Of a stretch of 64,000 nucleotides of DNA, positions 6,280-62,966 are shown piece after piece. The position numbers and the translations under genes are program-made. Position 1 is the stretch's first letter. Each line of letters starts with the position of its first letter. The notes under the pieces were generated by a model. The model had not been told where the DNA came from, did not search any database, and saw only the letters and a program-made list of their open reading frames with translations. The DNA is from Raja brachyura (lineage: Eukaryota), in the NCBI GenBank assembly GCA_963514005.1, contig OY740811.1:12152001-12216000 (forward strand), read 5' to 3'.

Positions 6280-6865
6280 ATTCACTAAGATCATGGTTGA
6301 ATTGAAGGTTTGCGCTAACTGTCTTCCTGTGTGATCTCATAATCCCCATATCCCATAGTATATAAAAATATATGTAATTTCAATGACTCAACATCCATTG
6401 GATCATGATGCAGAGAATTTCAAAATTGGACAATAGATCTTTCTTTGTCTTACATGGGTGAATTTTTTTTATGCTCTGCCGCTGGCTCCACACTTCCCCA
6501 CTCAGGGAAATTATGTTCACACGTCAACCATCACAATTAAATAAGCATAAAGAAGATTGCCTTCTATTCATCTAAACAGAAGCCAGTACAGTTCCAGTCT
6601 GCTCAATCTTTACTTATAAGAGAATTCTTTCATCCCAAGAATATACCTTCTGAACTTTTTCTGTACCACCTTTATTGGCAAGTTTATTGTTAAATAAGGA
6701 GATTAAAACTGCTCCAACTACTTCAGCTGTGTTTTTATTAAAACCATGCACATTTGTAGGAAGTCTTCCCTACTAGGAACTGTCTACCTTGCAATAAAGT
6801 CTGATATCCCATTTGCCTTCCTAATTATTTGCTCCACTTGCTTGTATACTTTGTGTTTCTCATAT
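6280..6865 (-). mobile_element. Highly degraded CR1-type LINE 3' fragment
   Basis: Degenerate similarity to the CR1 copies at 46534 and 49238 (ccattcactaagatcatgg; ggagattaaaactgctccaactacttcag; ccatttgccttcctaattatttg). Confidence 0.5.
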
Positions 6866-7541
6866 GTCCGGCATCACATGTTGAGGGGTGAAAGTTAAAC
6901 TGCAAAAGCAAACTTGATTTGAATGTTGTGGAAAAGTTTAAAAAATGTAATGTATATTTTCATATGTGCAACTTTTCTCCAATTACTGCTAGTTGACGAG
7001 CTTTTCTTGGTCCATGTTAAACTTCTTTTTAAAATATGTAAAAGTGCTGATAATTGCCATTGGATTATAGAGCAAAATCTATTTCGAAATAAATAGTTTT
7101 TCTTTTCATTTTTGAATGTGCAGTTCATAGGGTATTTGGTGAAAACCAAAGATGCTTCGTCTTAGTGCATAAAATATTGTATCTGTTCGATTTCAGTGGT
7201 CTAGCCATGGGTTCTAAACCGCTTTATTGTACACTGTTATGATTAACTTGCGTATTTTGTGTGATTTAATGTGTTTTTCTCAGTTTATTCAACAGCCCTT
7301 TATAAATAAATTACACGTTTCAACATTATTTGGCAGTTATATCTAGAGCAGCAACTAAGGACAAGATCAGATGCAGAGGAATCAGTGTGCAATCTCGAAT
7401 TCAATGATCACATCAAGTTAATAATTCAAAGATTATGATTTTTTTCTAATCTAGGTTGCAAAGCAACAATCAAATTTTTGTGAGATATGAGGGTATAATT
7501 GGAGTAAATACATTTATTTTACCAGGCAAAGTTGCAGCATA

Positions 7542-7834
7542 GAGGGTTACACAAAAAGCTGGAGAAACTCAGCGGGTGCAGCAGCATCTAAGGAGCGAAG
7601 GAGATGGGCAACGTTTCGGGTCGAGACCCTTCTTCAGACTCTGATTATTTGCTCCACTTGCTTGTATACTTTGTGTTTCTCATATGTCCGGCATCACATG
7701 TTGAGGGGTGAAGAAGGGTCTCGACCCGAAACGTCGCCTATCTCCTTCGCTCCTTAGATGCTGCTGCACCCGCTGAGTTTCTCCAGCTTTTTGTGTAACC
7801 CTCGATTCTCCAGCATCTGCAGTTCCTTCTTTAA
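7542..7834. mobile_element. Fold-back Penelope-like insertion with a hammerhead motif on each arm and a captured 72-nt local sequence between them
   Basis: Minus arm 7542-7640 and plus arm 7709-7834 are near-perfect inverted repeats. Perfect 15-bp TSD caaagttgcagcata (7527-7541 / 7835-7849). The spacer 7641-7712 is a copy of 6821-6892. Confidence 0.92.
7606..7640 (-). ncRNA. Minimal type-I hammerhead ribozyme motif (Penelope-type), intact core
   Basis: Minus strand reads agt-CTGAAGA-A-GGGTC-TC-GACCC-GAAA-CG-TT-gccc: CUGANGA box, perfect stem II, GAAA box, loopless palindromic stem III and a GUU triplet. Confidence 0.7.
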
Positions 7835-8039
7835 CAAAGTTGCAGCATAATTGTCAGAGCACATTTCCTTTAGTATCTTTGTGTCGCTTTCTAAGGTCGT
7901 GGTAACTAGTATTGTTCGCATTGGTTTTGAATTTATTGCGCCTAAAAAAAAAGTGGGACTCACTTGAACAGACCTTAGAAAACAATATAAAAATGACATC
8001 TGTAATTCATCGAATTGTAAAATAAGGAATAATGCAGAA

Positions 8040-14034: not shown

Positions 14035-15143
14035 CTCATTCACAAGAAAATAACTTATCTGGCTTCTTTGGAGTTGCTGATGTCCAAGTCAGATTCTATT
14101 TAAGGTCATATATTTGAATTGATTTTAGTTGATATAGTATAAGCTTAATCGTATGACTGTTTATACTTGTAGGAGTTCTCAAGTAAAGAATATATTCTAC
14201 AGAGGTAGTTATGAATGCTGAGCAAAAGGTGACAGCATTTGCAAGAGGGGGATGATAGAACAATATTGACGAGTTAAGTGTTTAGCAGACATTTGAAATT
14301 AAGAAAAGAGGTTGCACAATGGAAGGAAGAGGGCTCCAGAATAGTGCAATAGCTGTAAAAATTACATTGATCACTGTATATTGACTTTTGTATTTCATTG
14401 TATGTTACAAGATGAATGTTCACTCAGAGTTGCCTGGTAACTGAGGGAGCGCTGTATCTGCCATCTATCTAGTTGTCAATAGATTTAATTCCCATGGCTA
14501 CCTCACTGCTGATTGAGTTTCATCAGTTCTCACTCAAGTCGCCAAATGGGTGTTGTGTTCTGCTTGGGTAGGGCATTGCAGTAAAAAAAAGGCACCATAT
14601 ATTGATAATTCATGGAGTGCATCTTTTATCTTCAAAGTTGAGGAGGTGGGCCAGAATTGGATGTGATGCTGTGGGAGAAGGGGATTGTGCGATGTATTTG
14701 TAAAACTTGTTCTATCAATAGTGCCACTGAGTTATTTACCTCAAATCTATCAGTGACTGAGTTGAAATTACATTACCGATGTCCCTATCAGTTTTTTTAA
14801 ATTACACTTACAATTTAAATTAATTGTAGCTTTGTGGGGAGGGTGGATGAGTGGAAAACTATGATAAAAAATATTGAATTAGATTAAAAACAGCAATAGT
14901 CAGCTCTACAATAAATTAATGAAACTAAAAGATGTAAACCTCAGTAGAGAGTATCTCAATACAAATGTAACTTTCATCTTTGCATATTGAATAAATGATT
15001 GAGTGCTTCCTTTTAGAATTGTGTAGTAAATAGCAAAACTAGTAATAGCCTTGCTTACATTTTCAGGTCTAAAATCTTAGCATAAAACTGTTGCCAATGC
15101 TGAAGGAAATATCAGTCTAATTCTTTGAAGTGAAAACGTCCGA

Positions 15144-16743
15144 CGGTGCCCTCCATAATGTTAGGGACAAAGACCCATCATTTATTTATTTGCCTTTGTA
15201 CTCCACAATTTGAGATAAAAAATCACATGTGGTTAAAGCGCACATTGTCAGATTTTATTAAAGGGTATTTTTATACATTTTGGTTTCACCATGTAGAAAT
15301 TACAGCTGTGCTTATACATAGTCCCCCTATTTCAGGGCACCAAAATGTTTGGGACACATGGTTTCACAGGTGTTTGTAATTGTTCAGGTGTGTTTAAATG
15401 CCTCCTTAATGCAGGTGTCAGAGAGCTCTCAGTACCTAATCCTTCCTCCAGTCTTTCTCATCACCTTTGGAAAGCTTTATTGCTGTTTATCAAAATGAGG
15501 ACTAAAGTTATGCCAATGAAAGTCAAAGTAGCCATTATGAGACCGAGAAACAATAATAAAACTGTTAGAGACATCAGCCAAACCTCAGGCTTACCAAAAT
15601 CAACTTTTTGAAACATCATTAAGAAGAAAGAGCACTGGAGAGCTTACTAATCGCAAAGGGACTGGCAGGCCAAGGAACACCTCCACGGCTGATGACAAGA
15701 ATTCTCTCTATAATAAAGAAAAATCCCCAAACACCTGTCCGACTGATCAGAAACACTCTTCAGGAGTGTGGATTTGTTAATGACCACTGTCCGCAGAAGA
15801 CTTTATGAACAGAAATACAGAGGCTACACTGCAAGATGCAAACCACTGGTTAGCCACATAAATCGGATGGCCAGGTTACAGTTTGCCAAGAAGTACTTAA
15901 AAGAGTGACAACAGTTGTGGAAAAGGTCTTGTGAACAGATGAGATGAAGATTAACATATATCAGAGTGATGGCAAGAGCAAAGTATGGAGAAGAGAAGGA
16001 ACTGTCCAAGATCCAAAGCATACCGCCTCATCTGTGAAACATGGTGGTGGGGTATTATGGCCTGGGCAAGTATGGCTGCTGAAGGAACTGGCTTACTTAC
16101 TGTCATTTATGATACAACTGCTGATGGTAGTAGCATAAGTGTATTGACACATCCTATCTGCTCAAGTTCAAACAAATGCCTCAAAACTCATTAGCCATCG
16201 GTTCATTCTACAGAAAGACAATGATCCCAAACATAGAAGTTTTTCAAAACAAAATAATTGTAAATTCTTGAGTGACCAAGTCAATCACCCGATCTGAACC
16301 TAATTGAGCATGCCTTTTATATGCTGAAGAGAAAACTGAAGGGGACTAGCTCACAAAACAAGCTTAACTAAAGATGGCTGCAATACAGGTCCTGAAGAGC
16401 ACCACCTGAGAAGACACTCAGCAAATGGTGATGTCCATGAAATGCATTCTTCAAGCAGTCATTGCATACAAAGGATATGCAACAAAATACTAAACATGAC
16501 TACTTTCATTTGCATTACTTTGCTGTGTCCCAAACATTACGGTGCCCTGAAATGGGGGGTATAAACACTGCAGCAATTTGTACACGGTGAAACAAAAATG
16601 TATAAAAATGGCCTTTATTAAAATCTGACAATATGCACTTTAACCACATGTGATTTTTTTTCTATTACAAATCTCAAATTGTGGAGTGCGGAGGCAAATA
16701 AATCAATGATGGGTCTTTGTCCCAAACATTATGGAGGGCACTG
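15144..16743 (+). mobile_element. Tc1-like DNA transposon with long IR/DR termini (Sleeping Beauty-type architecture), full length but decayed
   Basis: ~215-bp inverted repeats (15144-~15357 / ~16527-16743), cggtgccctccataatg... / ...cattatggagggcactg followed by TA. Each IR has an outer and an inner direct repeat (ccataatgttagggaca / ccaaaatgtttgggaca). Confidence 0.95.
15495..16493 (+). pseudogene. Tc1 DD(34)E transposase pseudogene
   Basis: N-terminus MRTKVMPMKVKVAIMR..KTVRDISQTSGLPKST, GRPR motif, *TDEMKIN, SVKHGGG, ILQKDNDPKH, PSQSPDLNLIE, and C-terminus KGYATKY*. Multiple stops, frameshifts and an apparent deletion after DNDPKH. Confidence 0.93.
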
Positions 16744-17756
16744 TATGTGGAAATATTTGCTTCCTAGTTACAAGAGGCTTATAGCAAAGAGGACTTAAAA
16801 AGTGGAAAACTTGTCTTTTGAATTCATGTCACGTGTGAGCCATAACTATTGCTGGGGAATAGAAATCTTGGAGAACTAAATGTGTGGTGACACTAATAGT
16901 ACTTTAAGACATCTGCACCTCTGAAAGAGCTGAGTTTTGATCAGAAATGTTGCAATCCAACTTTAATTAGGAGGCCCATAGCATAATTAGTTTGAGGAAT
17001 CTGAAATAAAAGATATGGAGTCAAAACCCATAATTATTTATTTTTAAAAGATAAAATATTCGGAATGTGCAGTAACTTCATGACTGAGTTTTAAAATTGA
17101 ATGTTTGTTTATATTCCATTTTAAATTTGAACAATATTGTGTGCTTTTTATTCCTCAGTTATCATCCGTTAACACATCTTTGAGCATTAATTCCATGTGA
17201 CCAGTTTTATAACCAGTTTTTCATCAAATACAGAGTTGCGTGCATCAATATAAAACCAGCCATCTGGCCAGATCAGCCATCCCCCCCCCCCCCCCCCCTT
17301 CATACTCCACTATGGCACGCAATGTGGGACAGCTGAACCCATACAATTTATTTGATTCTTCCCAGCATAAAATGTAGCCAACATTTAAAAGACAACAGTG
17401 GCAAAAAGTACTTTAGGAGATAGAATGAGCTGAATCTGTTTGTGCCACGTTGTATTCATTAAGTATTGTTCTGTTGTATAAGTTAAAGGTAATAAGATGT
17501 TTGACAAATGTTCATGTGTTCCCCATGCTAATTATGCTTGATTTAATTAGTGTTCACTTATTTTTTAAACAATTTTGATTTCCAGTCTTTGCATATCTCC
17601 TATCTCATGAAACATATTTAAATATAGCGATAAAAAAAAGCATGGATCATTTTGGTCACTTGCATAAAATAATGATGTAAAATAATGCTGAGAAACTGCT
17701 AATAAATAAATGCCTGTTTATTACTTCAGATAGCATCTAACCTTTTCAGTTTTTTG

Positions 17757-20859: not shown

Positions 20860-21168
20860 ACCTGCACCTCCAACCTCATCTACTGCATCCGCTGCTCTAG
20901 ATGCCAGCTGATCTATATCGGTGAGACCAAGCGGAGGCTTGGCGATCGTTTCGCCGAACACCTCCGCTCGGTCCGCAATAACCAACCCGACCTCCCGGTG
21001 GCTCAGCACTTCAACTCCCCCTCTCATTCCGTAACCGACCTCTCTGTCCTGGGCCTCCTCCACGGCCAGAGTGAGCAACACCGCAAATTGGAGGAACAGC
21101 ACCTCGTATTCCGCTTGGGGAGTCTGCATCCTCTGGGCTTGAACATTGAATTTTCTCAATTCTGTTGA
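20860..21168 (+). pseudogene. Penelope-like element GIY-YIG endonuclease domain (5'-truncated, stop-free 102-codon frame, no start codon)
   Basis: My translation: TCTSNLIYCIRCSRCQLIYIGETKRRLGDRFAEHLRSVRNNQPDLPVAQHFNSPSHSVTDLSVLGLLHGQSEQHRKLEEQHLVFRLGSLHPLGLNIEFSQFC*. It shows NLIY-C..C-YIGET..L..RF.EH and L.P.GLN, diagnostic of PLE endonucleases. Confidence 0.93.
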
Positions 21169-21359
21169 CCCTTGCTGTCTCCTCCCCTTCCCACTTCTCC
21201 CCCAGCCCTCGGGCTCCTCCTTCTCCTTTTTCCTTTCTTCTCTCCGCCCCTCCCACCTCCCATCAGTCTGAAGAAGGGTTTCGGCCCGAAACGTTGCTTA
21301 TCTCCTTCGCTCCTTAGATGCTGCTGCACCCGCTGCGTTTCTCCAGCCTTTTGTGTACC
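20862..21359 (+). mobile_element. 5'-truncated Penelope-like retroelement (endonuclease + pLTR)
   Basis: GIY-YIG frame, pyrimidine tract, hammerhead motif and terminal body. 11-bp TSD ctcctttaaac (20851-20861) / ctcccttaaac (21360-21370), 1 mismatch. Confidence 0.9.
21265..21298 (+). ncRNA. Minimal hammerhead ribozyme motif in Penelope pLTR
   Basis: agt-CTGAAGA(21268-74)-A-GGGT-TTCG-GCCC-GAAA-CGTT-gct: stem II capped by UUCG and a 3-bp stem I (agt/gct with G.U). Confidence 0.7.
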
Positions 21360-22740
21360 CTCCCTTAAACTTTGCCCCTCTCATCCTGAAGAATGCATTT
21401 TCGTATTTTATTTATTCATCCGTGGAAAAGGGGCCTGACAGTCTATGCCTCTCATAATTTTATATATTTCTATCAGGTCTCCCCGCAACTTCCGGCATTC
21501 CAAAGAAAACAATTCAAGTCTGCTCAACCTCCCCTTGTAGCTATGCCCCCTAATCCAGGCATCATTCTGGTAAACCTCCTCTGCACCTTATCCAAAACCT
21601 CCACATCTTGCCTATGATGGGGCGACCAGAACTGCACGCAATACTCCAAATGCAGCCTAACCAAACACTATACAGCATCATCATGCGTTGTTGACTCTTA
21701 TATTCAATGCACAAACTATGGAAATAAGCATAGCAGACTTGCATACTAGACAAGCATACCAGACTGATTAGTCTTGCAAGAATGACACAATAAGTATACT
21801 GGTGGTTTGCTCCCAAGGTATAACAGAACATACACACATCTGTATATTACCTATAATGAGCAAGTGAGAATGAAACTGTACTGATAGGGTGCAAAATAGG
21901 CTTACTTTCTGGACCCAGGTCACGACTTAAAGCAATTTTGATAGGCAATTGAAATGTTCATTATTTTTCTTTTTACACTAATCATTTTAAATGTACAATA
22001 AATACTTCTGAGAGCTTGATCTCTGAGGTTTTATACCTCCTGCTGTTTCTTAATAAGATTTATTTGTTCTCACAGTTAGAATTGAGATGAGTGAAGGGAT
22101 TTATTCAAAGAAACAATAAATTATTGGATATTGTTATAGTTTTAGTTGTATTTCACCTATTTGTGACAGTTATTTACGATAAGCTCCTGAAGATCTGTCT
22201 GTAATTAGGTTTGAAAAAGAGAACGACTGTATTTTCAAAAATCACAGCACATTCCATATGAATCCACCATCTTTTCAGATTTAAAAACTATTTAACGTTC
22301 ATAATCCTCTAGCAATATTTTATTTAGTTGAAAAAAATAAAAATTGATTGTTAGAGCCTTTTTAAATTTTTAATGCATTTCTAACTTTTTTCAATAGTTT
22401 AGCATGCATCAATGGTTTGTCAGTAGTCTTTCAAAACAAATTGTGTGCAGAATTGATTAAATGTCAGGTTTGAGGCAGAGTTTTTACTATTTGATCTAAT
22501 GCAAATGAAAAAATACAGAGTAATTCTTGAGCAAAATGACAAAGATATTTTTAGGCCAAATTCTTGCCTAACCTGGGCGTGTCATAAATCACAAAATAAA
22601 ATTATTCAAAAATAATTTGCTTTAAATATTCTCACCTTCATTCTGCCTGAATTCCCTATTAGAACAAAGGTGCAGGAATGCCAGGGGTTCCTTTTTTTTA
22701 AGCAAAACTCACTGATCTATCACAGCAAATGACAGCCAAA

Positions 22741-24003: not shown

Positions 24004-27000
24004 GGTTACGTGTTTTTGATTGACCTAACCCCCTGTTGGATCAACAAGATGGCCTTCAGAGATCGTTAAAGATAGATTGTATGTTTGTATTTTCAGTATA
24101 CATTAAACAAATTATATGGTGAAGTGATAACGATGAGAGAAATTCCATATTTGAGAGGTAACAATATATAGAATTTTGATTGTTCCCTGTCTTGCTTTTT
24201 CTTTCATGAGGGCGTTTGAGGCCTGGCAACAGTGTTATTTTGTCCGAGCAACTGATTCTATCTAAGAGGCTTTTTCAGCAAGTATGAAAAGCATCATCAC
24301 TAAGCCAATGGTACTGTCAGTTGAGATGTACATGCAGGCATCATAGCTATGGTCAGTGAGTAGGGATCATGCACAGGAGCCCTTGTTGTTCATCACCGAA
24401 CACATCCATCACATTTTTTATCTGAACTGCTGTGCGTTCTATGGAGGCACATATGGAATCTTGAGTAAAACTCAAAGTGCTGGAGGAACTCAGCACATTC
24501 GGCAGCATTTGTGGAGACTGAATTGAATATTTTGTCATAAATCTGGATTGACCTGTGATCGAACAGAATTGAAAATGTTGTTAGAAATCTGACAAAATTG
24601 TGTTTCATGATGGGTCGGGTCCCATCTTCAAAGTGGACGTTTCAGGTTGGGACTCTACTTCAGACACACTTTCTGTGGTGATGGATAAAACCAGCTATCT
24701 TTCTGTGTTCAGCGAATCAAACCTCATATTTTCAGAACTGCATTGTGTCAGATATAACACATTTTTAGACTGATCTAATTAGGAAATTAGAGCACAGGTT
24801 TAGCTCCTTTGGCCTACAACATCCATGTGGACCAGCATATGCCTTGGAGAATCATGTACTTGCTTAGATTCTTCCAGACATATGAAAGTTACTACCCCTT
24901 CGATCCACTCGTGCACTAACCAATGTTTTAAAAAATTGTGTCATTATCTCCCCGCTTTCATCCAGTGGCTTGGCATATGAAGACAAGTATCATTTACCCT
25001 TATTGACTATTGCTCTCTGTGATTTGCTGCACCTCCAATGCCTGAGATTAAGATAGTTGTCTACATGAAATGTACCTAATTTGAGGTTGTTGGCAGTCTT
25101 AAAGAAAATGAACAACATTATTTTTCTTGGATATACGAACATTTTTAATCAATAATTTTCTCGTAAGCTTTCTCGTGACATGTATATTTTTTCTTTCAAT
25201 TTTTAAAAGATCCATCATGTGTTGCTTGTTTTTCTACTTGTAAATTGAATCACGAATGTGGTTTTTGATAATGGTAATTATTTTACCCTTTTTACTTGAC
25301 ACTAGCATTATTCTTCTGTTCAGTGTTTTCGTAGGTGAAGACTTGAATTTAGATTGTGTCCTCAGATGGGAGTATGCAAATGTTTAATTTTAGATGTGTT
25401 TAATTGATAGATAATGAGACAGTGAAATAGGTATTTTTGTCAGCACGTTTTGTTTTTAAACATGCAGGATTTATTTATTTTAAATCATTGAAATCGGGTC
25501 ATTCATGTATTTTTTTTACAGACAAAAAATCATATTGTCCATAAAATAAATTTGCTGTTGCTTTATTATAAATCTTAAATAGATGTAATCTACATCTGTT
25601 TAGATCTTTCCCAAGAATAGAGGCAGCATTACTATGCCTCCAACAGGCACTTACCATTTCATTTAGTTTTATCTTATGGAAGGTTGTAGCATTGTTTTAT
25701 TTTTATATAATAAAATATTAATCTGCATTCTGCCTGCAGAGTATAATTTCTATCTCTGTTACCGTACTGTGAGCTTCCTCCCAGCTGTGCACAGAGAACA
25801 TAAATGTTAAAGGGCAGAACACTTGTGCCAAGTTGTTTTAATATTTTATTTGTGGTGTGTTGAAATCCAAGGCTAAGTGAGTGTAACTTGTCTTGAACCA
25901 AGTTTCATGTCAACACAGTTTAATCCAGATTTATAACAAAACATTCAATTCTGTTCTGGTAAAATACGCGTAAATATATAAATAGTACAAAGTTACAATT
26001 ATGATGTAAAATGGACAGTTGGTTTGAATAATAATCATGCATTATGATATTTCTATGCAGTACATGTTTTAAGTAACTGGTATTAGGTTAACACTGTATG
26101 AATTTTTGATTATTTTCAGTACAATATTATTGTTGGCTACCAATGATCCTATGGTGCTGGTATGATTCGGTTACTCAATTGGATTGTACAATTTAAATGA
26201 GTTTATCTGGCAGTACCAGATGTCTCCGCGATTACTGTACTTGGAGTTAACTCTCCCGCTTCTGTGGGAAAGGTTCATGGATTTGAATACTATTTCATAA
26301 ATGAACATATTATAAATGAACACCTCAGGGTGTTAGTATGATGCTACTGTATTGTTAAGTGGTCACTTTTTTGGCTGAACAATTAGGCTGTAACTTCATG
26401 TGTTTGATTCGGATGGTCATCAGTGACCAAAGATTTTAACCCAATAGCACTGTTGCTATGTGACAAAAGGGTAATCTCTTCTCTTAAAGCATTTTGCACA
26501 AGGCAGGACTGTGGTGGAATATTCGGTATACGAGTGAGACTGTAATGGCAGAGACTTAATATTATGTCATATGCTATAGTTGGCACGGTGGCTGAATTAG
26601 GCTCTGGATTCATTGTTCACAAATACCACCAGCTCATGAGGGGTGTAGATAAGGTGGGTGGTTCAGTCCTTTCCCCAGGGTAGGGGATTGAAACTAGAAG
26701 GCATTGATTTGTGAGGGGGAAGATTTGAATGAGGCCGGACTGACTGGCAGTTGTTTCCATGCTGCATAACATCAATGATGATGACTAGCAGTATATTTTG
26801 TTTGCACTGTGATCTGTTTGTAGGATACTTTGCCTTGCATGCTACAACTAAACAGTGCCTCCCTGCAAAAAAACAATAAATGGTTAGGAATCTCATCAGG
26901 CCCCACTAAGCTGCACATGGTTAGTGTGTACTGATACTGTCACAATCCTTGGTTTCTCAAAGTTTTGTGAGTGATGTCCACGAGGATTGCAGACATTTAT

Positions 27001-37504: not shown

Positions 37505-38373
37505 GCTGGGATCCCATTGTGATGTTCTTGTGACGTCAAACTCGTCATGGTCAGGGCAAGTGGGAAAAGTGATTTTTGTAACGTTTAAAATGTGAATAAC
37601 TTGTAAAATATACCTTCAATCTGAACAAAATTTGTTTCATTTACATCACAGGAAAATAGTGAGTAAGGTGGGCCTAAAATTGTAGCACTATCGTGTACCG
37701 TTGTGGAGGGATTTTGGTCGGACGCACTAACTCACAGGCTCTCTCTAATGTATATTTATGAGTGGGACCAGTTGGGTCCCTGTTACACAGGAGGTCTGGT
37801 CCCCCAACACAACTCATTCCGCCAACGCAATATTCAACCACTCGCCCATGGCCCCCATCGGAGGCCTGGTCCCCCAGCGCAGTCCGTTCCCAAACTCAAT
37901 ATTACACCACTCATCCATAGCCCCCAACTGTGCAGGAGCAGCTCATTTTCCCTTATGCACCCTCCCTCTTTTTAAACTTTAAAAAAAAAATCCATTTGCA
38001 CTTGCTGCCAGGTAAAAAAAATCCAATTGCAGTTGCTGCCAGGACTCGGTGTCCTGGGATTTGCAACATTGTAACGGGCAGGGCCAGCAATTAGATTCAG
38101 TTTTTTTACAGTGAGATGTTAAGTGAAAAGTTAAATGTGTAAAGTTTTAAATGTGAAAAACTTGTAAATATATAACATAAATCTGAACGAAACTTGATAC
38201 CACACACCACAGGACAATGGTGAGTAAGGTGGTCCAAAAATTGTAGCGCTATCCTGTACTGTTTTGGCATAATTCAGGGCATCGGGGCATGAGTCACAGA
38301 CAGACACACAGGCAGACTCACAAACAAACAAGATGAGAGTTTTAGTAAATATATATAATATATAGTAGATAGA
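37505..38373 (-). mobile_element. Two head-to-tail non-autonomous Helitron-like fragments
   Basis: Minus-strand 5' end A|TCTATCTACTATATATT at 38373. Subterminal hairpin gggaccca-ac-tggtccc at ~37764-37780. A ~130-bp block is duplicated (37580-37705 vs 38140-38265). The terminal CTRR is not seen. Confidence 0.55.
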
Positions 38374-42106: not shown

Positions 42107-42322
42107 GTAGAAACAAAGAGCTGCAGACGCTGGTTAATATACAAAAGAACACAAACTGTAGGAGTAACTCAGCAAGTCAGGCAGCATTTCTGGAGAACAT
42201 GGGTAGGTGATGTTTCTGGCCGAGACCCTTCTTCGGTCTGAAGAAGGGACTCGACCCAAAACCTCCCCTGTCCATGTTCTCCAGTGATACTGCCTGAAAT
42301 GCTGAGTGCGTCCAGCACTTTG
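42107..42322. mobile_element. Fold-back Penelope-like terminal pair
   Basis: ggagaacatggg...gagacccttcttcgg | tctgaagaagggactcgaccc...ccatgttctcc arms. Followed by a tandem duplication of ttgttggagtaactcagcatt. Confidence 0.8.
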
Positions 42323-42401
42323 TTGGAGTAACTCAGCATTTGAAATGTTTGTTGGAGTAACTCAGCATTGAAGATGTTTTATTGGGGCACCAATGGGGTA
42401 A

Positions 42402-42929: not shown

Positions 42930-43095
42930 CAGACACAAAGTGCTGGAGTAACTCAGCGGGTCAGGCATTAGGGTTAGGCATTTTCTCCAGAGATGCTGCC
43001 TGACCCGCTGAGTTACTCCAGCATTTTGTGTCTACCTTACTCCAGCATTTTGTGTAATCTTTGGTATAAACTAGCATCTGCAGTTCCTGCCCACA
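42930..43095. mobile_element. Fold-back Penelope-like fragment inserted in a CR1 tail (CR1 continues antisense to ~43360)
   Basis: agacacaaagtgctggagtaactcagcgggtcaggca / tgcctgacccgctgagttactccagcattttgtgtct is a near-perfect inverted pair. Confidence 0.85.
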
Positions 43096-49634: not shown

Positions 49635-51550
49635 CAGGGCACGAAATTAGCGGTTGCCCGGGTGCCAATGACCACCCAAAGTGCCGCCGGGCAACCTAAA
49701 CACCGACTCATTTTGTCCGGCATGGCACGCAAGTACTGGTTAATACTGGTTTATACTGATAGACACAAAAAACTCTAGTAACTCCGGGTCAGGCAGCATC
49801 TCTGGAGAATAGGAACGTGACATCTCGTGTCGGCGGCGGCCGTATTCCTCTAGAATCTTTGATTGCGGGGCAAAGATACTAGGTGCGTGGTGATGAAGGG
49901 TTGGAGCGAATGACGGGCCTCATACAGCGGCAGCAGCTCCACCGCCTCCTCCCGCGCCGGCCTCGGCGTGCGAGAGGAGTTGATTTGAAAGCGCTGTTGG
50001 TGGATTTGCAGGCAACGGCCGCTATCGCCCTGATAACGGCTGTTGCTTACAATCCGTTAACGGCGTTTTCAAAACAACCCCTCTCGCACGCCGAGGGAGG
50101 GAGGGGGAGGTCTCCTTCCGCCGTCTGAAGCAGCTGCACTGCTCGGCCCCGCACCCTACCTGTCGGCTGGCGGAGGAGGGGAGGCGGTGGCGAGGAGATC
50201 CCAACCGCCTCCCCCTTTCGCGGTGGCACTTTGGCGTTGGACAGGGACGGCCAAGGCAGCGGGGCGATGTTGTCCGAGGAGCGCTGACCTTCCTTCCTCC
50301 CCACCTCCTCTGCCCCTTTCCCATCCTCTCTCGCCCTCTCTCTCGCCCGCTCTCGCGCCCGCTCTCGCTCTCTCCCCCTTCAGTCCTCACTTACATTCCC
50401 TGTGCTACCCTACCCACCTCGCATTGATTCCCCTGCCCCTCTCCTGAAGAAGGGTCTCAACCCGCAACGTTGCCTATTTCCTTAGCTCCATAGATGGTGC
50501 CTCACCCGCTGAATTTTTCCAGCATTTTTGTCCACCTCCATTCATCCTGTACTGATCCCCGCCATTCATCCCGCACTTATACCCCCATTCAACACCACTG
50601 ACATCCCCCGTGCTCTCCCCTCACAATTTTACATACTCCAACCAACACGTACTAATTCACCTGCCTCAATCCATCCATTCCGCACCGATTGACTTCTCAA
50701 CCCCCACTCCCACCCCCCCCCCCGCCATCTATCCACCCCGCACTGATTCACACACCCCCCCCCCCCCCCCCCCCCGACCCTATTGTGCTTCATGGTCTTC
50801 AGAGCGAACGTTGACTATGGTTGATAACTGAATACAATCAAATGTGTTTTGATTCCCAATGTTATTATTTGTTTTGACACCTTTAAACATATGTAGTGTG
50901 CATGGTTAATCATATATGTTACCATGGTCCAGGATTTATTGACACAGGTTGATCATATGCTGAATAATCCAACCACATTTTTGTTTGCAAGTGGAAAGGA
51001 CTAATATAAATTGCATTAATTGCAATGTGTAAAAAGAGTTGAGATATTGTATTATAATTTTGCTGCATGTCATTGTGGTATATATCATGTTTTGATTGGT
51101 GAATATGTTTAGTTTGTGAGTTATTTGAAGCAGAAATAATATTTGAATGTAGACAAAAGGGCTGGAGAAACTCAGCGGATGCGGCAGCATCTATGGAGCG
51201 AAGGAAATAGGCAACGTTTTGGGCTGAAACCCTTCTTTAGACTGATGGGTTTCGGCCTGAAACGTTGCCTATTTCCTTCGCTCCATAGATGCTGCTGGAC
51301 CCACTGAGTTTCTCCAGCACCTTTGTCTACCTTCGATTTTCCAGCATCTGCAGTTCCTTCTTGAGCATAATATGTGAATGCTTCATTGAACATAATTCTA
51401 ACTGGTAACTACGCACTTCGTCCGAGCACATTATCGCATGCGTCATGCAAACCGTCTTAAATGACCACCTAAACTGTCATTTGGCAACCTAAAAAGCTGT
51501 CAAGGTTGCCCGGCTGGCAACTGGGGAAAAAAAGTTAAGCGAGAGCCCTG
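49635..51550 (+). mobile_element. Composite non-autonomous hAT-like DNA transposon, copy 1 (5-bp TSD, hAT5-like)
   Basis: Termini cagggcacgaaatta / ttaagcgagagccctg. TSD atgaa/atgga, defined by the interrupted CR1. Subterminal ggcaac/gttgcc motifs. Colinear with 55257-58466. Confidence 0.85.
51150..51366. mobile_element. Fold-back Penelope-like insertion inside hAT-like copy 1
   Basis: ~85-bp inverted arms and a 14-bp TSD ataatat(t/g)tgaatg (51136-51149 / 51367-51380). The empty site is present at 58284-58297 in copy 2. Confidence 0.92.
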
Positions 51551-51642
51551 ATGGATCTGTGGAATTATTTGCCGCAGAGGGCTATGGAGGCCAAGTCAGT
51601 GGATATTTTTAAGGCAGAGATAGATAGATTCTTGATTAGTAT

Positions 51643-52260: not shown

Positions 52261-52460
52261 NNNNNNNNNNNNNNNNNNNNNNNNNNNNNNNNNNNNNNNN
52301 NNNNNNNNNNNNNNNNNNNNNNNNNNNNNNNNNNNNNNNNNNNNNNNNNNNNNNNNNNNNNNNNNNNNNNNNNNNNNNNNNNNNNNNNNNNNNNNNNNNN
52401 NNNNNNNNNNNNNNNNNNNNNNNNNNNNNNNNNNNNNNNNNNNNNNNNNNNNNNNNNNNN
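52261..52460. other. Assembly gap (200 N)
   Basis: Run of N. Confidence 1.
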
Positions 52461-55256: not shown

Positions 55257-58200
55257 CAGGGCTCGAAATTAGGGATTGCCCGGGTGCCAATGACCACCCA
55301 AGGTGCCACCGGGCAACCTAAGCGTCGGGTAATTTTGCCTGGCTTGGCACTTGCAGATACTGGTTTATACTGAAGATAGACACAAAAAATTGGAGTATCT
55401 CAGCGGGCCAGGCAGCAATCCTGGAGAGAAGGAACGTGACATTTCGTGTCGGCGACGGTAACAAGCAAAGATACTAGAGGAGTTCCTCTAGTATCTTTGG
55501 TAACAAGCTGTAGTGCGGGGCAAAGATACTGTGTGCGGCGTGACGGACGGTCGGAGCGAATGACGTGCCCCGCACAGCCGGCAGCGGCTCCTCCTCCTGT
55601 CCCGCACCCTGCCCGCCCTGATAGCGGGTCGCTGCTTGCCACTCCACCATATCCGCTTTCAAAACAAACCCGCAAGCCGAGGGATGGAGGGGGAGGCCTC
55701 CTTTCGCCATCTGAGGCACCTGCATCGCTCGGTGCCCCCCGCACCTTGCTGTTGGCTGGCGGAGGAGGCGATGCGGTGGCGAGGAGATCCCAACTGCCTC
55801 CCCCTTTGGCGGGTGGCACTTGGCGGTGGACAAGGGACAAGGCAGTTGGACGATGATACCGGTGTCCGACGAGCGCTGACCTTCCTTCCTCCCCAACACC
55901 ACCTCTCGCTCTCTCGCGCTCTACTCCCGCCCCCCCTTATCCTGAGACCCTCCTCCTCTCCATCCCGCACTGATCCCCATTCCCGCCTTTGTTCAGATCC
56001 TCACTGACATCCCCTGTGATCCCCTCCCCATCTACCCCCCCCCCCCCCCCAATCTATTTCATCCCTGCGCTGATTACCCTATCCATCTATACTGGTCCCC
56101 CAATTCATCCTGTACTGACCCCCTTTCCCATTCATCCTGCACTTCTCCTCCATCCATCCTGTACTGATCCCCCCCCCATATTCATCGCGTTCAAACCTAT
56201 CCTCCATTTAACCTGCACCGATCCCCCCCCCATCCATCCTGTAGTGATCTCCCCATTCATCTTTTACTGATCCCCCTCCATTCATCCAGTACTAGTCCCC
56301 GCCCATTCATCCTGTACTGATCCCTCATATATCCTGTACTGAACCCCCCATCCATCCTGTGGTGATCTCCTCATTCATCCCTGTACTGATCCCCCCCCCT
56401 TTATCCTGTACTAATCCCTTCATTCATCCTGTAGCGAGCCCCCCCATTCATCCTGTAGCGAGCCCCCCCATTCATCCTGTAGCGAGCCCCCCCCATTCAT
56501 CCTGTAGCGATCCCCCCCAATTAATCCTGTAGCAAGACCCCACCCATTCATCCTGTAGCAAGCCCCACCCATTCATCCTGCAGCGATTCCCCCCCCATTC
56601 ATCCTGTAGCGAGCCCCCCCATTCATCCTGTAGCGAGCCCCCCACATTCATCCTGTAGCGAGCCCCCCCATTCATCCTGTAGCGATCCCCTCACATTCAT
56701 CCTGTAGCGATCCCCCCCCCATTCATCCTGCACAGACCCTCCGATCCACACTGTACTGACCACCCCCCCATTCAATCCTGTACTGAACCTCCCATTCATC
56801 CTGCGCCTATCCCCCACCCCCCATTCATCCTATACTGATCCCCCCCCCCATTCAGGAAGAATGGGGGGGGGTCTGTTTGAAGAAAGGTCTCGACCCAAAA
56901 CGTTGCCTATTTCCTTTGCTCCATGGATGCTGCCCCACCCGCTGAGTTTTTCCAGCATTTCTGTCTACCCCCCATTCATCCTGTACTGATCCCCCCCCAT
57001 TCATTCTATACTGAACCCCCCCCATCCGTCCTGTACTGATCCCCCAATCCATCCTGCACAGATCCCCCCTTCCATCCCGTACTGATCCACCCCCCCATTC
57101 AATCAACCCCTCTGACATGCCCTGCGCTCTCCCCCTCACAATTTTACTACTCCAACATGCACTAATTCCCCTGCCTCAATTCATCCATTCCACACCGATT
57201 GCCTTCTCAACCCCCCCCCCCCCCATCTCTCCATCCCACACTGATACACACCAATCTCCCCCCCCCCCCCCCCCCCCCCCTCCGCTGGAAATGTCTTCAG
57301 AGCGAACATTGACTGTGTTTGATAATGGAATGCAATCAAATGTGTTTCTATTCCCAATGTTATTATTTGTTTTAATCCATAAAGATGGGTTAATTAAATT
57401 GTGAACTCGTGAAACATTAAAACCGCAGTGTTCGATTGTCACTGCTACCGTTGACACGTTATTACAGAATTCATTTTAACGGCAAATCAACGCTCTTAAT
57501 ATGGATTATCAGTACTGTAGATATTTAATGAGCAACATTCACAACTATACGTTGGATATATCCAGGTTTTACTTCTACAGTCGGTCATGTACATCACAAA
57601 TTCGGTCAGGAGATATTTCAGTTGAAATTCTAACGTTAATTCTGAAGTGGGAAACAGCATTTATCAATTTTTTTAATCTGGTGCGTACAAACTGGGTATC
57701 TTCATAGCTGTTCACAGTGCATACATCTAATCTGAATGTCCGGTAATGTGGCGTTTTGACACCTTTAAACATATTACCAAAAGAACATTTGCTGCAGTTA
57801 TGTCCTTTCGTCATCTCTTGTCAGTTAGTGTAATGTTTAATCTGTCAGATGGGTATAGTCTGTTTTAACAGCTATTATCATAAAATGCCTTTATAAAATT
57901 CCTTGCAACCTGCATATTTTTTTGTGGGTAAATTATGTGGGAAGCGAGAGTGTTTCTGTACCAATAGCAATAACGACCCATGCTGTGGCCATGTCATGAT
58001 AATTTTCGGTTCTTCACAGAAAACATGCTTGCATCAATCTGTAGTGTGCATGGTTAAGCATATATATTACCATGGTCCCGGATTTATTGACACAGGTTGA
58101 TCATACGCTGAACAATCCAACCACATTTTTGTTTGGAAGTGTAAAGAAATAATAGAAATTGCATTCATTGCAATGTGTAAAAAGAGTTGAGATAATGTAC

Positions 58201-58466
58201 TGTAATTCTGCTACATGTCATTGTGATATATATCATGTCTTGATTGGTGAATATGTTTAGTTTGTTCTTTATTTCAAGCAGAAATAATATGTGAATGCTT
58301 CATTGAGCATAATTCTGACTGGTAACTACGCACTTCGTCCGAGCACAATATTGCACGCGCCATGCAAGCCGTCTTAAATGACCACCTAAACTGTCATTTG
58401 GCAACCTAAAAAGCTGCCTAGCTTGCCCGACTGGCAACAGGGAAAAAAAGTTAAGTGAGAGCCCTG
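55257..58466 (+). mobile_element. Composite non-autonomous hAT-like DNA transposon, copy 2 (3.2 kb, 5-bp TSD)
   Basis: Termini cagggctcgaaatta / ttaagtgagagccctg and a perfect 5-bp TSD aaaag (55252-55256 / 58467-58471). Colinear with copy 1, plus an expanded minisatellite and ~650 bp extra. Confidence 0.9.
56060..57100 (+). repeat. C-rich minisatellite, unit ~20-23 bp (c)n-attcatcctgta(gcgag|ctgat)
   Basis: Dozens of units. The most homogeneous block, ccccccattcatcctgtagcgag, lies at ~56420-56720. It is interrupted by a Penelope fragment at ~56877-56968. Confidence 0.95.
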
Positions 58467-60297
58467 AAAAGGTTTAAATATCTAGCCAGCGATTCTTAAC
58501 TCGTCTCTTATTTCAGATGATTTGCATTTTAATAACAATATTTCATCCTAAAATTGTAAGATTAAGATATTTTTTCAAGCAATGGTGAGATATTTTTGTT
58601 TTTTGAAACATTGATTGAAAATAATGATGTTAGGGAAATGGCATTGCTAGGAGTCTTTTGGAAATGGTGGAAGAGTTGGAAGCCTGTCACTATAATATGA
58701 CATTTAACTGTAAAGGCAAGCTGTATGAATCTACAAAGGAGTTAAACTTATTCTTTAATTTTCATGCTGGAAGTATATAATTTGTTGTGGATATATGGTC
58801 CTAACAGGATATCCTGGTTGACTGGCAGTTTATGGTCGATCATGCTTCAAATCGGGTTTATTATTTTTGAGAAATATGTGCATTTTCTGCATGATTTATC
58901 TTGTCAGTAGTGATTGTGTTGATACTCATTAGCATTCCAGTGGACCTCATTATTTTCTTATATCCAGTAGCTATCCTCGTTTGTAACAGATTGGCTTAGG
59001 CCCAGGCCATTTGGGCATGTTGTAAGAATTATCAGGACCAGTCTCTATCTTGTATGTGCAAACAAGATTGCATGATTTATGTTAAGTAATATGCACCAAC
59101 AATAGAAATTAGTAAGATGATGTTTGTCTGAAGTTAATTTAAAGGGTAATTTCTGAGTGAGGTTATCTTTTTAATCTGGTATGTTTTAGAAAGTACTGAA
59201 TATGCAAAACCAGAATACTGTATTTATTTGTAATTTAAATGCCTGGAGTACCAAATTAGTCTTGTTTTGGTCTTTTAAGCATTGAACACTAGCTTACTAG
59301 AGATGCTTTTTAATTCGCAGACATGTTTAATTGAAGTTGGAGTTAAATATTGGGATGTGTTTATACAATGCGTTAATTTTGTAATTCAGTTGCACTAAAT
59401 GTGCGATGGGAAGGAATGTAAATTCTAATATTTTGTGCATTTCTTGGTGAGTTTACGTCTTCCACGATGGCTAACTTAAAAATATAACATCATGTAAAGG
59501 GCTCATAAGGGCACCAGGCCAAAATGTGCATAAATAAACTTTTCTGATTAGATTCAGACAGGCAACCAAAGAATGACGTAATATCTTAAGGTATTCAGTT
59601 AGCAACAATGCTGGTCTCATCTAACTGGAATGTAAATGTTACCCAAATTACTGTGCCTGAAAATTCTTATGGTCTCAATTACTGTCTCAATGAGCAGTTC
59701 TCATGTTTAACTATCACATTAATGCAAATCATACCAGTAAGTGTGGAAAGATGGACACCCCATGCTGGCTAATGTAATGGGTTCATGAGTAGTTTCAAAG
59801 ACTTACAGAATTTTATTCCAGTAATTTAGGTTTGTGAGCATAATAAGCATTTCAGTTTTTTTTTAAATTTCAGATTGCCAGCATCCTTTGTAAAAATGTC
59901 ATGTCTAAGTTGAGAGTTCTTTTCCTCCTCATAGTCGTAGAATTTATAACTTTGAGTCCAAATGTTGAAGGTGTCTTGAGATGAAATATGAATCCATACT
60001 CTCATCCATCTATCCAAGTTCTTGTTAAAAATCTATTTATGGGTAGTAGATAATGTTGGCAAGATCAGTATTTACTTTTTAACCCCCAAGTACCTAGGAA
60101 AAGATGGAATGGGAAATATATTTTATATTTGTTGTCAATATGGCGTATGATTTGGAATTGTTCTTCTGCCATTTTCCTGCATGATGGAAGCTGTAGAGTG
60201 GGAATTATTGGAGCAATCTAGGCAAGTAACTGCAGTGCCAATGATGAACAGAGTAAAGGTCTTTTCTCGCCTCCAGCCCTTCACCCTACTCTCTTTC

Positions 60298-62809: not shown

Positions 62810-62966
62810 AAAAGGACACAAAATGATTGAGTAACTCAGTGGGTCAGCCAAAATCTCCGGAGAACATGGGTCGGCGACGTTTCGGTTCTGGACCCTTCTT
62901 CAGGGCGGCGACGTTTCGGTTCGGGACCCTTTTGTAAACCAGCATCTGTAGTTCCTTGTGTCTACC
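62810..62966. mobile_element. Fold-back Penelope-like fragment with tandemly duplicated hammerhead segment
   Basis: ggcgacgtttcggttctggacccttcttcag followed by ggcgacgtttcggttcgggaccctt. Sits inside an antisense CR1 remnant (62770-63056). Confidence 0.75.

Follow-up and report, generated by a model that had tools for sequence, protein, structure and literature searches.

A copy of neighbouring DNA between the inverted arms of a Penelope-like element in the skate Raja brachyura

Results

The window analysed here, a 64-kb stretch of contig OY740811.1 of the Raja brachyura assembly, carries at 7542–7834 a head-to-head pair of Penelope-like element (PLE) repeats enclosed by a perfect 15-bp target site duplication (TSD; 7527–7541 and 7835–7849 on the + strand, 15/15 identical), the right copy of which begins with a CA that may double as the last bases of the element. 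The left arm (7542–7640, − strand) is an inverted, tail-less copy of the PLE 3′ repeat (pLTR-like) and ends 3 nt upstream of the CUGA box. The right arm (7709–7834, + strand), recognised by profile match, is a sense copy that starts with UGAAGA, the C of the box being replaced by a G from the donor described below, and it is 31 nt longer at its 3′ end than the left arm, the extension (7804–7834) being the PLE ‘tail’. A tail profile built partly from this very copy matched at 7802–7836 (E 2e-9), and the same profile gave no match in the left arm. The two arms differ at 2 of their 95 shared positions, and each differs at 7 or more of 95 from every one of five other window copies tested; since they are closer to each other than to those five, the arms share one source and are young. 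Four element bases of the left arm (7637–7640) are missing from the right arm.

Assignment of the arms to a PLE comes from a reference copy of the subfamily at 20860–21362 (+ strand), which is 5′-truncated and comprises a GIY-YIG endonuclease, a linker and the same 3′ repeat. Its ORF (20860–21168) matches the Pfam GIY-YIG domain (E 4e-5), is 88% identical to a Leucoraja erinacea protein, and has two Cys before the YIG and two His downstream (CCHH motif); the 3′ repeat (21265–21362), which differs from each arm at 7 of 95 positions, follows. Because the same repeat thus lies behind a C-terminal GIY-YIG ORF, the arms are those of a PLE, and the identification made in the first-pass annotation is borne out. 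The reference copy is itself apparently inserted in a CR1 remnant, has an 11-bp near-TSD and ends at the same tail-less point as the left arm. Among the features expected of EN+ PLEs, the GIY-YIG domain with CCHH is found in the subfamily copy at 20860–21168 and not in the insertion itself; the insertion has the inverted, 5′-truncated pLTR with a one-sided tail in the 30–40 bp range (31 nt, right arm only) and the TSD (15/15). In its head-to-head arms, tail of 31 nt on one arm, TSD, hammerhead-like motif and C-terminal GIY-YIG, the family resembles EN+ PLEs as described (PMC3846280, PMC8557442, PMC11167929). No PLE reverse transcriptase (RT) is left in the 64-kb window, and relatives elsewhere carry RT motifs. 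A CX4CxxC linker is present in a whale-shark relative that is 66% identical, the window copy being truncated before that motif; with a CX2-5CxxC motif in the RT–EN linker described as the mark of Neptune/Nematis (PMC8557442), the family of the insertion looks Neptune/Nematis-like.

Between the arms lies a 72-nt segment (7641–7712, + strand) that repeats positions 6821–6892 of the left flank on the same strand, with 71 of 72 positions identical. The sole mismatch is at position 3, where the donor has A and the copy G, so that 6824–6892 equals 7644–7712 over 69 of 69 positions, and identity ends at both borders. A sensitive blastn search with the donor against the 64-kb window returned only these two segments, and the 72-mer is absent from the other PLE copies within the window. 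Exact matching of the spacer to DNA within 3 kb extends to 65 nt, a length that none of 280 random segments of the same size reached (maximum 16 nt). The last four bases (7709–7712, TGAA) are common to the donor copy and the right arm, and the first 4–5 nt are possibly element-derived; removal of the 4-nt right overlap and of up to 5 nt on the left leaves 63–68 nt that are purely captured. As far as an assembly can show, the feature is real and the outline description correct: a duplication in the same orientation, lying between inverted arms inside a perfect TSD, and a local copy rather than a dispersed repeat, no other match being present in the window. The distance of 820 bp given for the donor applies start to start in the filled allele; measured from the TSD, the donor lies 634–706 nt away.

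On its left the donor is continuous with a decayed LINE RT remnant with several stops (6472–6864, − strand), which we take to be of CR1 type from its motif, the database names being generic. When 11 named cartilaginous-fish RT proteins were used as tblastn queries, 10 aligned within this interval on the minus strand, with E values of 3e-4 to 1e-18 (the best at 40% identity over 137 aa), and an exhaustive search with the remnant gave three unnamed matches (E 1e-4 to 7e-4). Forty-four nt of the donor fall inside the CR1 alignment and 28 nt beyond the aligned part, which agrees with the earlier description of the donor as spanning the end of a decayed CR1 and its flank. Because the CR1 homology continues for 350 nt to the left of the 72-mer and ends inside it, copying went from donor to insertion, and a transfer of the spacer into the donor position is ruled out. 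The donor also differs from the other CR1 pieces of the window, and since the remnant is heavily decayed, another CR1 copy seems an unlikely source of the 69/69 match. Elsewhere in the window, 15143–16744 has inverted ends of ~220 nt around 1.2 kb, with CAGTG after TA at one end, and presumably is a decayed Tc1/mariner transposon.

At the right junction TGAA is common to donor and element, which differ on either side of it, a perfect overlap of 4 nt; an overlap of at least this length is expected at ~1.9% of random junctions (chance 0.019), which makes a microhomology-guided template switch the likely cause, as had been proposed. At the left junction, judged against the endonuclease-linked copy, the arm ends at 7640 without perfect overlap, and an overlap arises only through a 2-nt slip or if CTGA is read as the right arm’s own start. 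Microhomology at both junctions can thus be upheld for the right one, whereas on the left it is imperfect and depends on the parse. Positions 7641–7645 could be donor with a later mutation, or left arm with a 2-nt slip (4 of 5 bases matching the donor), or the CTGA of the right arm, in which case the donor would have been inserted inside the box with TGA repeated, a reading that also suits later repair. The sole mismatch between donor and copy is the base predicted by both element-derived readings, which would favour these two.

The left arm contains a hammerhead-like motif with complete core (7610–7637, − strand, read from the sequence), consisting of CUGAAGA, a 4-bp stem II, GAAA and a palindromic ACGU. 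The CUGANGA and GAAA core around stem II has one extra A before stem II in this arm, and in the right arm it lacks what we take to be C3 of the hammerhead core numbering. Stem II is paired in 91% of cells across 17 copies, without covariation support (the score was reached by 181 of 500 shuffles), and no Rfam hammerhead matched at gathering or E-value thresholds; PLE hammerhead motifs have been described as minimal, without helix III. A repeat profile built from 13 window copies gave 39 matches, a dense population for 64 kb. Seventeen of these begin in the first four profile positions and four of the 17 continue into element-like upstream sequence, leaving 13 of 39 without detectable upstream element, both arms included, a count that is rough since the profile start was set by the analyst and the upstream linker is variable. 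The CUGA box is accordingly a family-wide 5′ endpoint and not special to the capture event: the junctions do lie at the box, as first noted, and so do the starts of other copies. The position equivalent to the ribozyme cleavage site lies after 7735, 26 nt from the junction. A junction at the cleavage site is thereby ruled out, and both arms therefore come from uncleaved RNA, in agreement with the report that PLE insertion did not need ribozyme cleavage (PMC11167929).

Nine head-to-head pairs were chosen by eye from the profile matches. Tails occur on one arm only in seven of the nine (one match being weak), on neither arm in two by the script’s rule, and on both arms in none. Four pairs have centres of at least 10 nt, which were checked for local templating, and the other five have centres of 0–7 nt; only the pair at 7542–7834 has captured local DNA. 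Since eight of nine pairs have no capture, head-to-head arms form without it, and capture as a general route to arm formation is ruled out; the view of the insertion as a direct footprint of the process behind the inverted pLTR structure is not supported. The tight-centred pairs at 42145–42325 and 51147–51331 persist without a patch. The pair at 51149–51367 has a 14-bp TSD, backed by a paralogous empty site within the window: the stretches 50889–51551 and 58037–58467 are ~91–92% identical, and the latter is without the pair. At the boundary between tail and target, CA or ACA is found in all seven tailed copies inspected (2323, 5909, 7834, 18567, 45559, 51367 and 54551), which suggests a 2–3 nt pairing at the outer priming site. 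The joint of the pair at 42934–43095 holds an 11-nt telomere-repeat-like stretch (42969–42979, TTAGGGTTAGG), which may be there by chance; PLE RTs are relatives of telomerase. At 62813–62961 lies a complex PLE unit in which the 5′ hammerhead-like part is repeated and the right arm consists of the tail only, a structure consistent with repeated template jumps.

A second possible capture was found in an older PLE copy (24469–24665, − strand), which is interrupted by two tandem copies of local DNA that are inverted relative to their donor at 25912–25956 (+ strand): 24517–24557 is 88% identical over 41 nt (E 4e-9) and 24561–about 24610 is 82% identical over 45 nt (E 2e-6). The copies are thus 12–18% diverged from the donor, which lies ~1.3 kb away and matches only these two in the PLE. 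They replace ~20 nt of the element and are followed by a doubled 5′ hammerhead-like part. They sit in a single-orientation copy, not at a head-to-head junction; there is no palindrome, and no TSD was detected around 24469–24665. Donor and copies could alternatively represent a small dispersed repeat. A scan for local duplications, from which the tandem array at 56–57.4 kb was left out, listed 34 non-PLE pairs. In four of them both segments are shorter than 100 nt and occupy distinct places less than 3.2 kb apart, namely the two PLE captures, the adjacent tandem 37790–37926 and a weak 79% match (9082/10929). Because PLE sequence, counted with margins of 15 nt, makes up 6.6% of the window, the tie between the second local capture and the PLE is suggestive only. 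The tandem duplication at 37790–37926, with no PLE adjoining, lies between the copies of a 144-nt direct repeat (37564–37706 and 38125–38267, 81% identical, 419 nt apart).

No host exon was detected in the window by splice-site exon scans or by Pfam scans of 12 frames and of 94 further frames, the latter taken mostly from 1,245 open frames of at least 30 aa; the sole match in the 94-frame scan, to ALKBH8_N, was below the cut-off and we take it to be a LINE fragment. On the + strand, T outnumbers A in 25 of 32 bins, a skew of the kind that suggests + strand transcription, and the window probably represents a long intron in a gene on that strand. If the element’s cDNA made them, both captures are compatible with a + strand template, the first ambiguously, since either cDNA end could switch; this fit is a lead towards a host RNA template and not evidence for one. 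For the second capture, the + strand is the strand that resection would remove, which would favour RNA or a D-loop as template.

Discussion

We propose, with a probability of roughly 0.6, that the insertion arose in one event, in which twin target-primed reverse transcription was completed by a patch copied from a local template. The PLE endonuclease would have nicked both strands 15 nt apart, the spacing shown by the TSD. The tailed right arm would have been primed from the bottom-strand nick at the outer RT start site, and the tail-less left arm from the top-strand nick at an inner start site, 31 nt further in. The tail asymmetry points to this step, as does in vitro work on an anole PLE, whose protein nicks and extends both strands and whose tail is the stretch between two RT start sites (PMC11167929). 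Two-strand priming at two start sites, as in that system, would account for one tailed and one tail-less arm around an intact TSD, and a 31-bp tail on one inverted pLTR has been described (PMC3846280). Both cDNAs would then have stopped at the CUGA box, in keeping with the endpoint usual in the family. Two antisense ends of this kind cannot pair; the usual 3-bp joint may derive from a CAG-T-CTG quasi-palindrome, and joining through it at the box is suggested by the pair centres at 42236 and 51240. In the present case one end, most simply that of the right-arm cDNA, could have paired through the 4-nt TGAA with the left flank at a point 634 nt from the nick and, after copying ~65–70 nt and being released, joined the other end via an imperfect match. 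The template of the patch would by default be DNA (an exposed strand) or else nascent RNA, the polymerase could be the PLE RT or a repair polymerase, and the patch would be an end-joining accident, with no function implied. Templated insertions in direct orientation have been explained by one end using the opposite, resected end as its template (PMC7165422).

Several observations speak for a single event: the intact TSD around the whole unit, the near-identity of the arms (2/95), the one-sided tails in seven of nine pairs, the TGAA overlap and the second capture. In addition, the left arm needed a template of its own, because its element bases 7637–7640 are absent from the right arm. There are also points against it. 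The top-strand primer end and the start of the left arm are without perfect microhomology, the length and distance of the tract are atypical when set against polymerase theta and L1, and the second capture is without detectable TSD and away from any head-to-head junction. The in vitro data come from a Poseidon-clade element and the insertion’s family looks Neptune/Nematis-like; moreover, the model is built on one 64-kb window of the assembly. Divergence does not order the events, since the comparison of the arms (2/95) with the spacer (0/69) is a test without power (Fisher p 0.51). Finally, the patch could equally be parsed as 68 nt inside an intact CTGAAG with TGA repeated, which would fit a later event.

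It could be that the insertion was formed in two steps, a less likely but serious alternative, in which a 100-bp near-perfect palindrome with a 3-nt centre was inserted first and an apex break or stalled fork later led to an out-and-back template switch to the nearby flank, adding the 68 nt; the capture would then be silent on arm formation. Read in this way the junction resolves into CTGA, donor and TGA-AG, the donor has bases resembling the element at either end, the arms have lost no sequence, and the spacer is no more diverged than they are. Tight palindromes are unstable, and the unit is predicted to fold as a very stable DNA hairpin (−129 kcal/mol); iterated copies that replace a short stretch, as at 24517–24610, are a repair signature. 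However, hairpin-apex breaks usually delete central bases and none are missing here, the tight pairs at 42145–42325 and 51147–51331 have endured unpatched, and the second capture occurred in a single-orientation copy without a palindrome. Unless later repair was at work, the head-to-head junction would have to have been closed at the target site and not preformed in RNA.

Another possibility, which we consider highly improbable, is a true fold-back, whereby the first cDNA strays onto the flank, snaps back and copies itself into the second arm, the scenario nearest to the wording of the first-pass annotation. It resembles the self-priming proposed from palindromes at PLE inverted junctions (PMC3846280), R2 is known to show snap-back synthesis on its cDNA or on nearby rDNA (PMC11371274), and the arms are nearly identical. 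Yet a copy of the right-arm cDNA would begin with the donor’s GGGG before TGAAG, and the left arm instead has AGTC, as does the element upstream; nor would a fold-back be expected to end the second arm at the tail boundary, where it ends in most pairs, and a palindrome preformed in RNA elsewhere cannot hold DNA of the new site. A simple snap-back off a finished right-arm cDNA, a fold-back in the literal sense, is disfavoured by the four bases 7637–7640, which are present in the left arm and lacking from the right. For the inverted arms of PLEs in general, self-priming was put forward as a hypothesis (PMC3846280), and two-strand priming has in vitro data (PMC11167929). Scarcely credible is a non-local origin, whether through a mistake in assembly or consensus or through sequence brought in from a duplicate of the region elsewhere in the genome. 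In its favour, identity beyond the junction is 69/69, hairpin-forming DNA is hard to sequence and the window is scaffolded (200 N at 52261–52460). Against it, the perfect TSD encloses junctions that lie at element-specific positions and show microhomology, the arms differ at two sites, the donor joins a decayed CR1 edge to flank unlike the other CR1 pieces of the window, and the 12–18% divergence of the second case from its donor is not expected of an assembly slip.

Among known systems, the templated insertions of L1 come closest in that a retrotransposon insertion acquires a copy of non-element genomic DNA lying close to its target. In tumours, a survey of 3,598 truncated L1s yielded 22 cases, typically below 250 bp and with templates typically within 15 bp of the site (bioRxiv 10.1101/2024.08.27.596794); three templated insertions were reported from L1-induced cells (PMC11702581), and SDSA-like switching has been proposed for such events. 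The PLE case differs in element class, in the distance of the donor (634–706 nt) and in that the patch lies where two cDNAs of one and the same RNA segment meet. L1 twin priming, as described in these two L1 studies, is similar in that both nicked strands prime cDNA, the TSD is kept and the inversion joint is closed by microhomology end joining; in contrast, the L1 arms are adjacent RNA segments, with a median overlap of 22 bp when duplicated, whereas the PLE arms represent the same 95 nt, which requires either two rounds of copying of the RNA or the use of two RNAs or of tandem repeats. In Adineta vaga, unrelated sequences are captured between solo pLTRs within TSDs, but in the accessible text of that report they are not traced to the neighbourhood of the insertion and the inverted junction is explained by self-priming (PMC3846280). 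R2 snap-back shares with our case that the cDNA 3′ end primes extra synthesis on itself or nearby DNA before joining, and differs in involving one cDNA and a site-specific target, with no second RNA-templated arm (PMC11371274).

Insertions made by polymerase theta or MMBIR are likewise direct or inverted copies of flanking DNA joined at short or imperfect microhomology, sometimes iterated as at 24517–24610, but their primary tracts rarely exceed 10 bp, and the templates described or looked for lie within ~100 bp (PMC7165422, PMC8421209). At 45–70 nt from 0.6–1.3 kb, the PLE captures are beyond that tract length and distance. We therefore do not class the insertion, with 63–68 nt copied from 634–706 nt away, as a polymerase-theta templated insertion, given tracts rarely above 10 bp (PMC7165422), although the capture may work in a similar way. 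Our literature search, with most subscription papers outside it, turned up no PLE junction reported to contain DNA of local origin; the accessible parts of a retrozyme preprint (10.64898/2026.07.22.740005) and of a Chlamydomonas mutation paper (PMC9977147) contain nothing on local PLE captures, and motif scans of a prokaryotic genome collection gave no matches to related loci.

A more general idea, that the PLE RT routinely jumps from its own RNA to a nascent host transcript or R-loop at the locus and back, seems doubtful to us. If it were true, PLEs in shark and skate introns would carry short, sense-templated captures from within ~1.5 kb, and each head-to-head unit would be assembled at the target from a pair of independently primed cDNAs. 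What can be said is that ~70 bases of neighbouring sequence sit in the middle of the insertion. They are a genuine, though rare, junction scar, of a type familiar from L1 and R2 and here met in a new element class. A spacer made of neighbourhood DNA indicates a joint still open when at the target site, and the worth of such spacers lies in their use as genome-wide markers for testing twin priming against fold-back and DNA against RNA templates.
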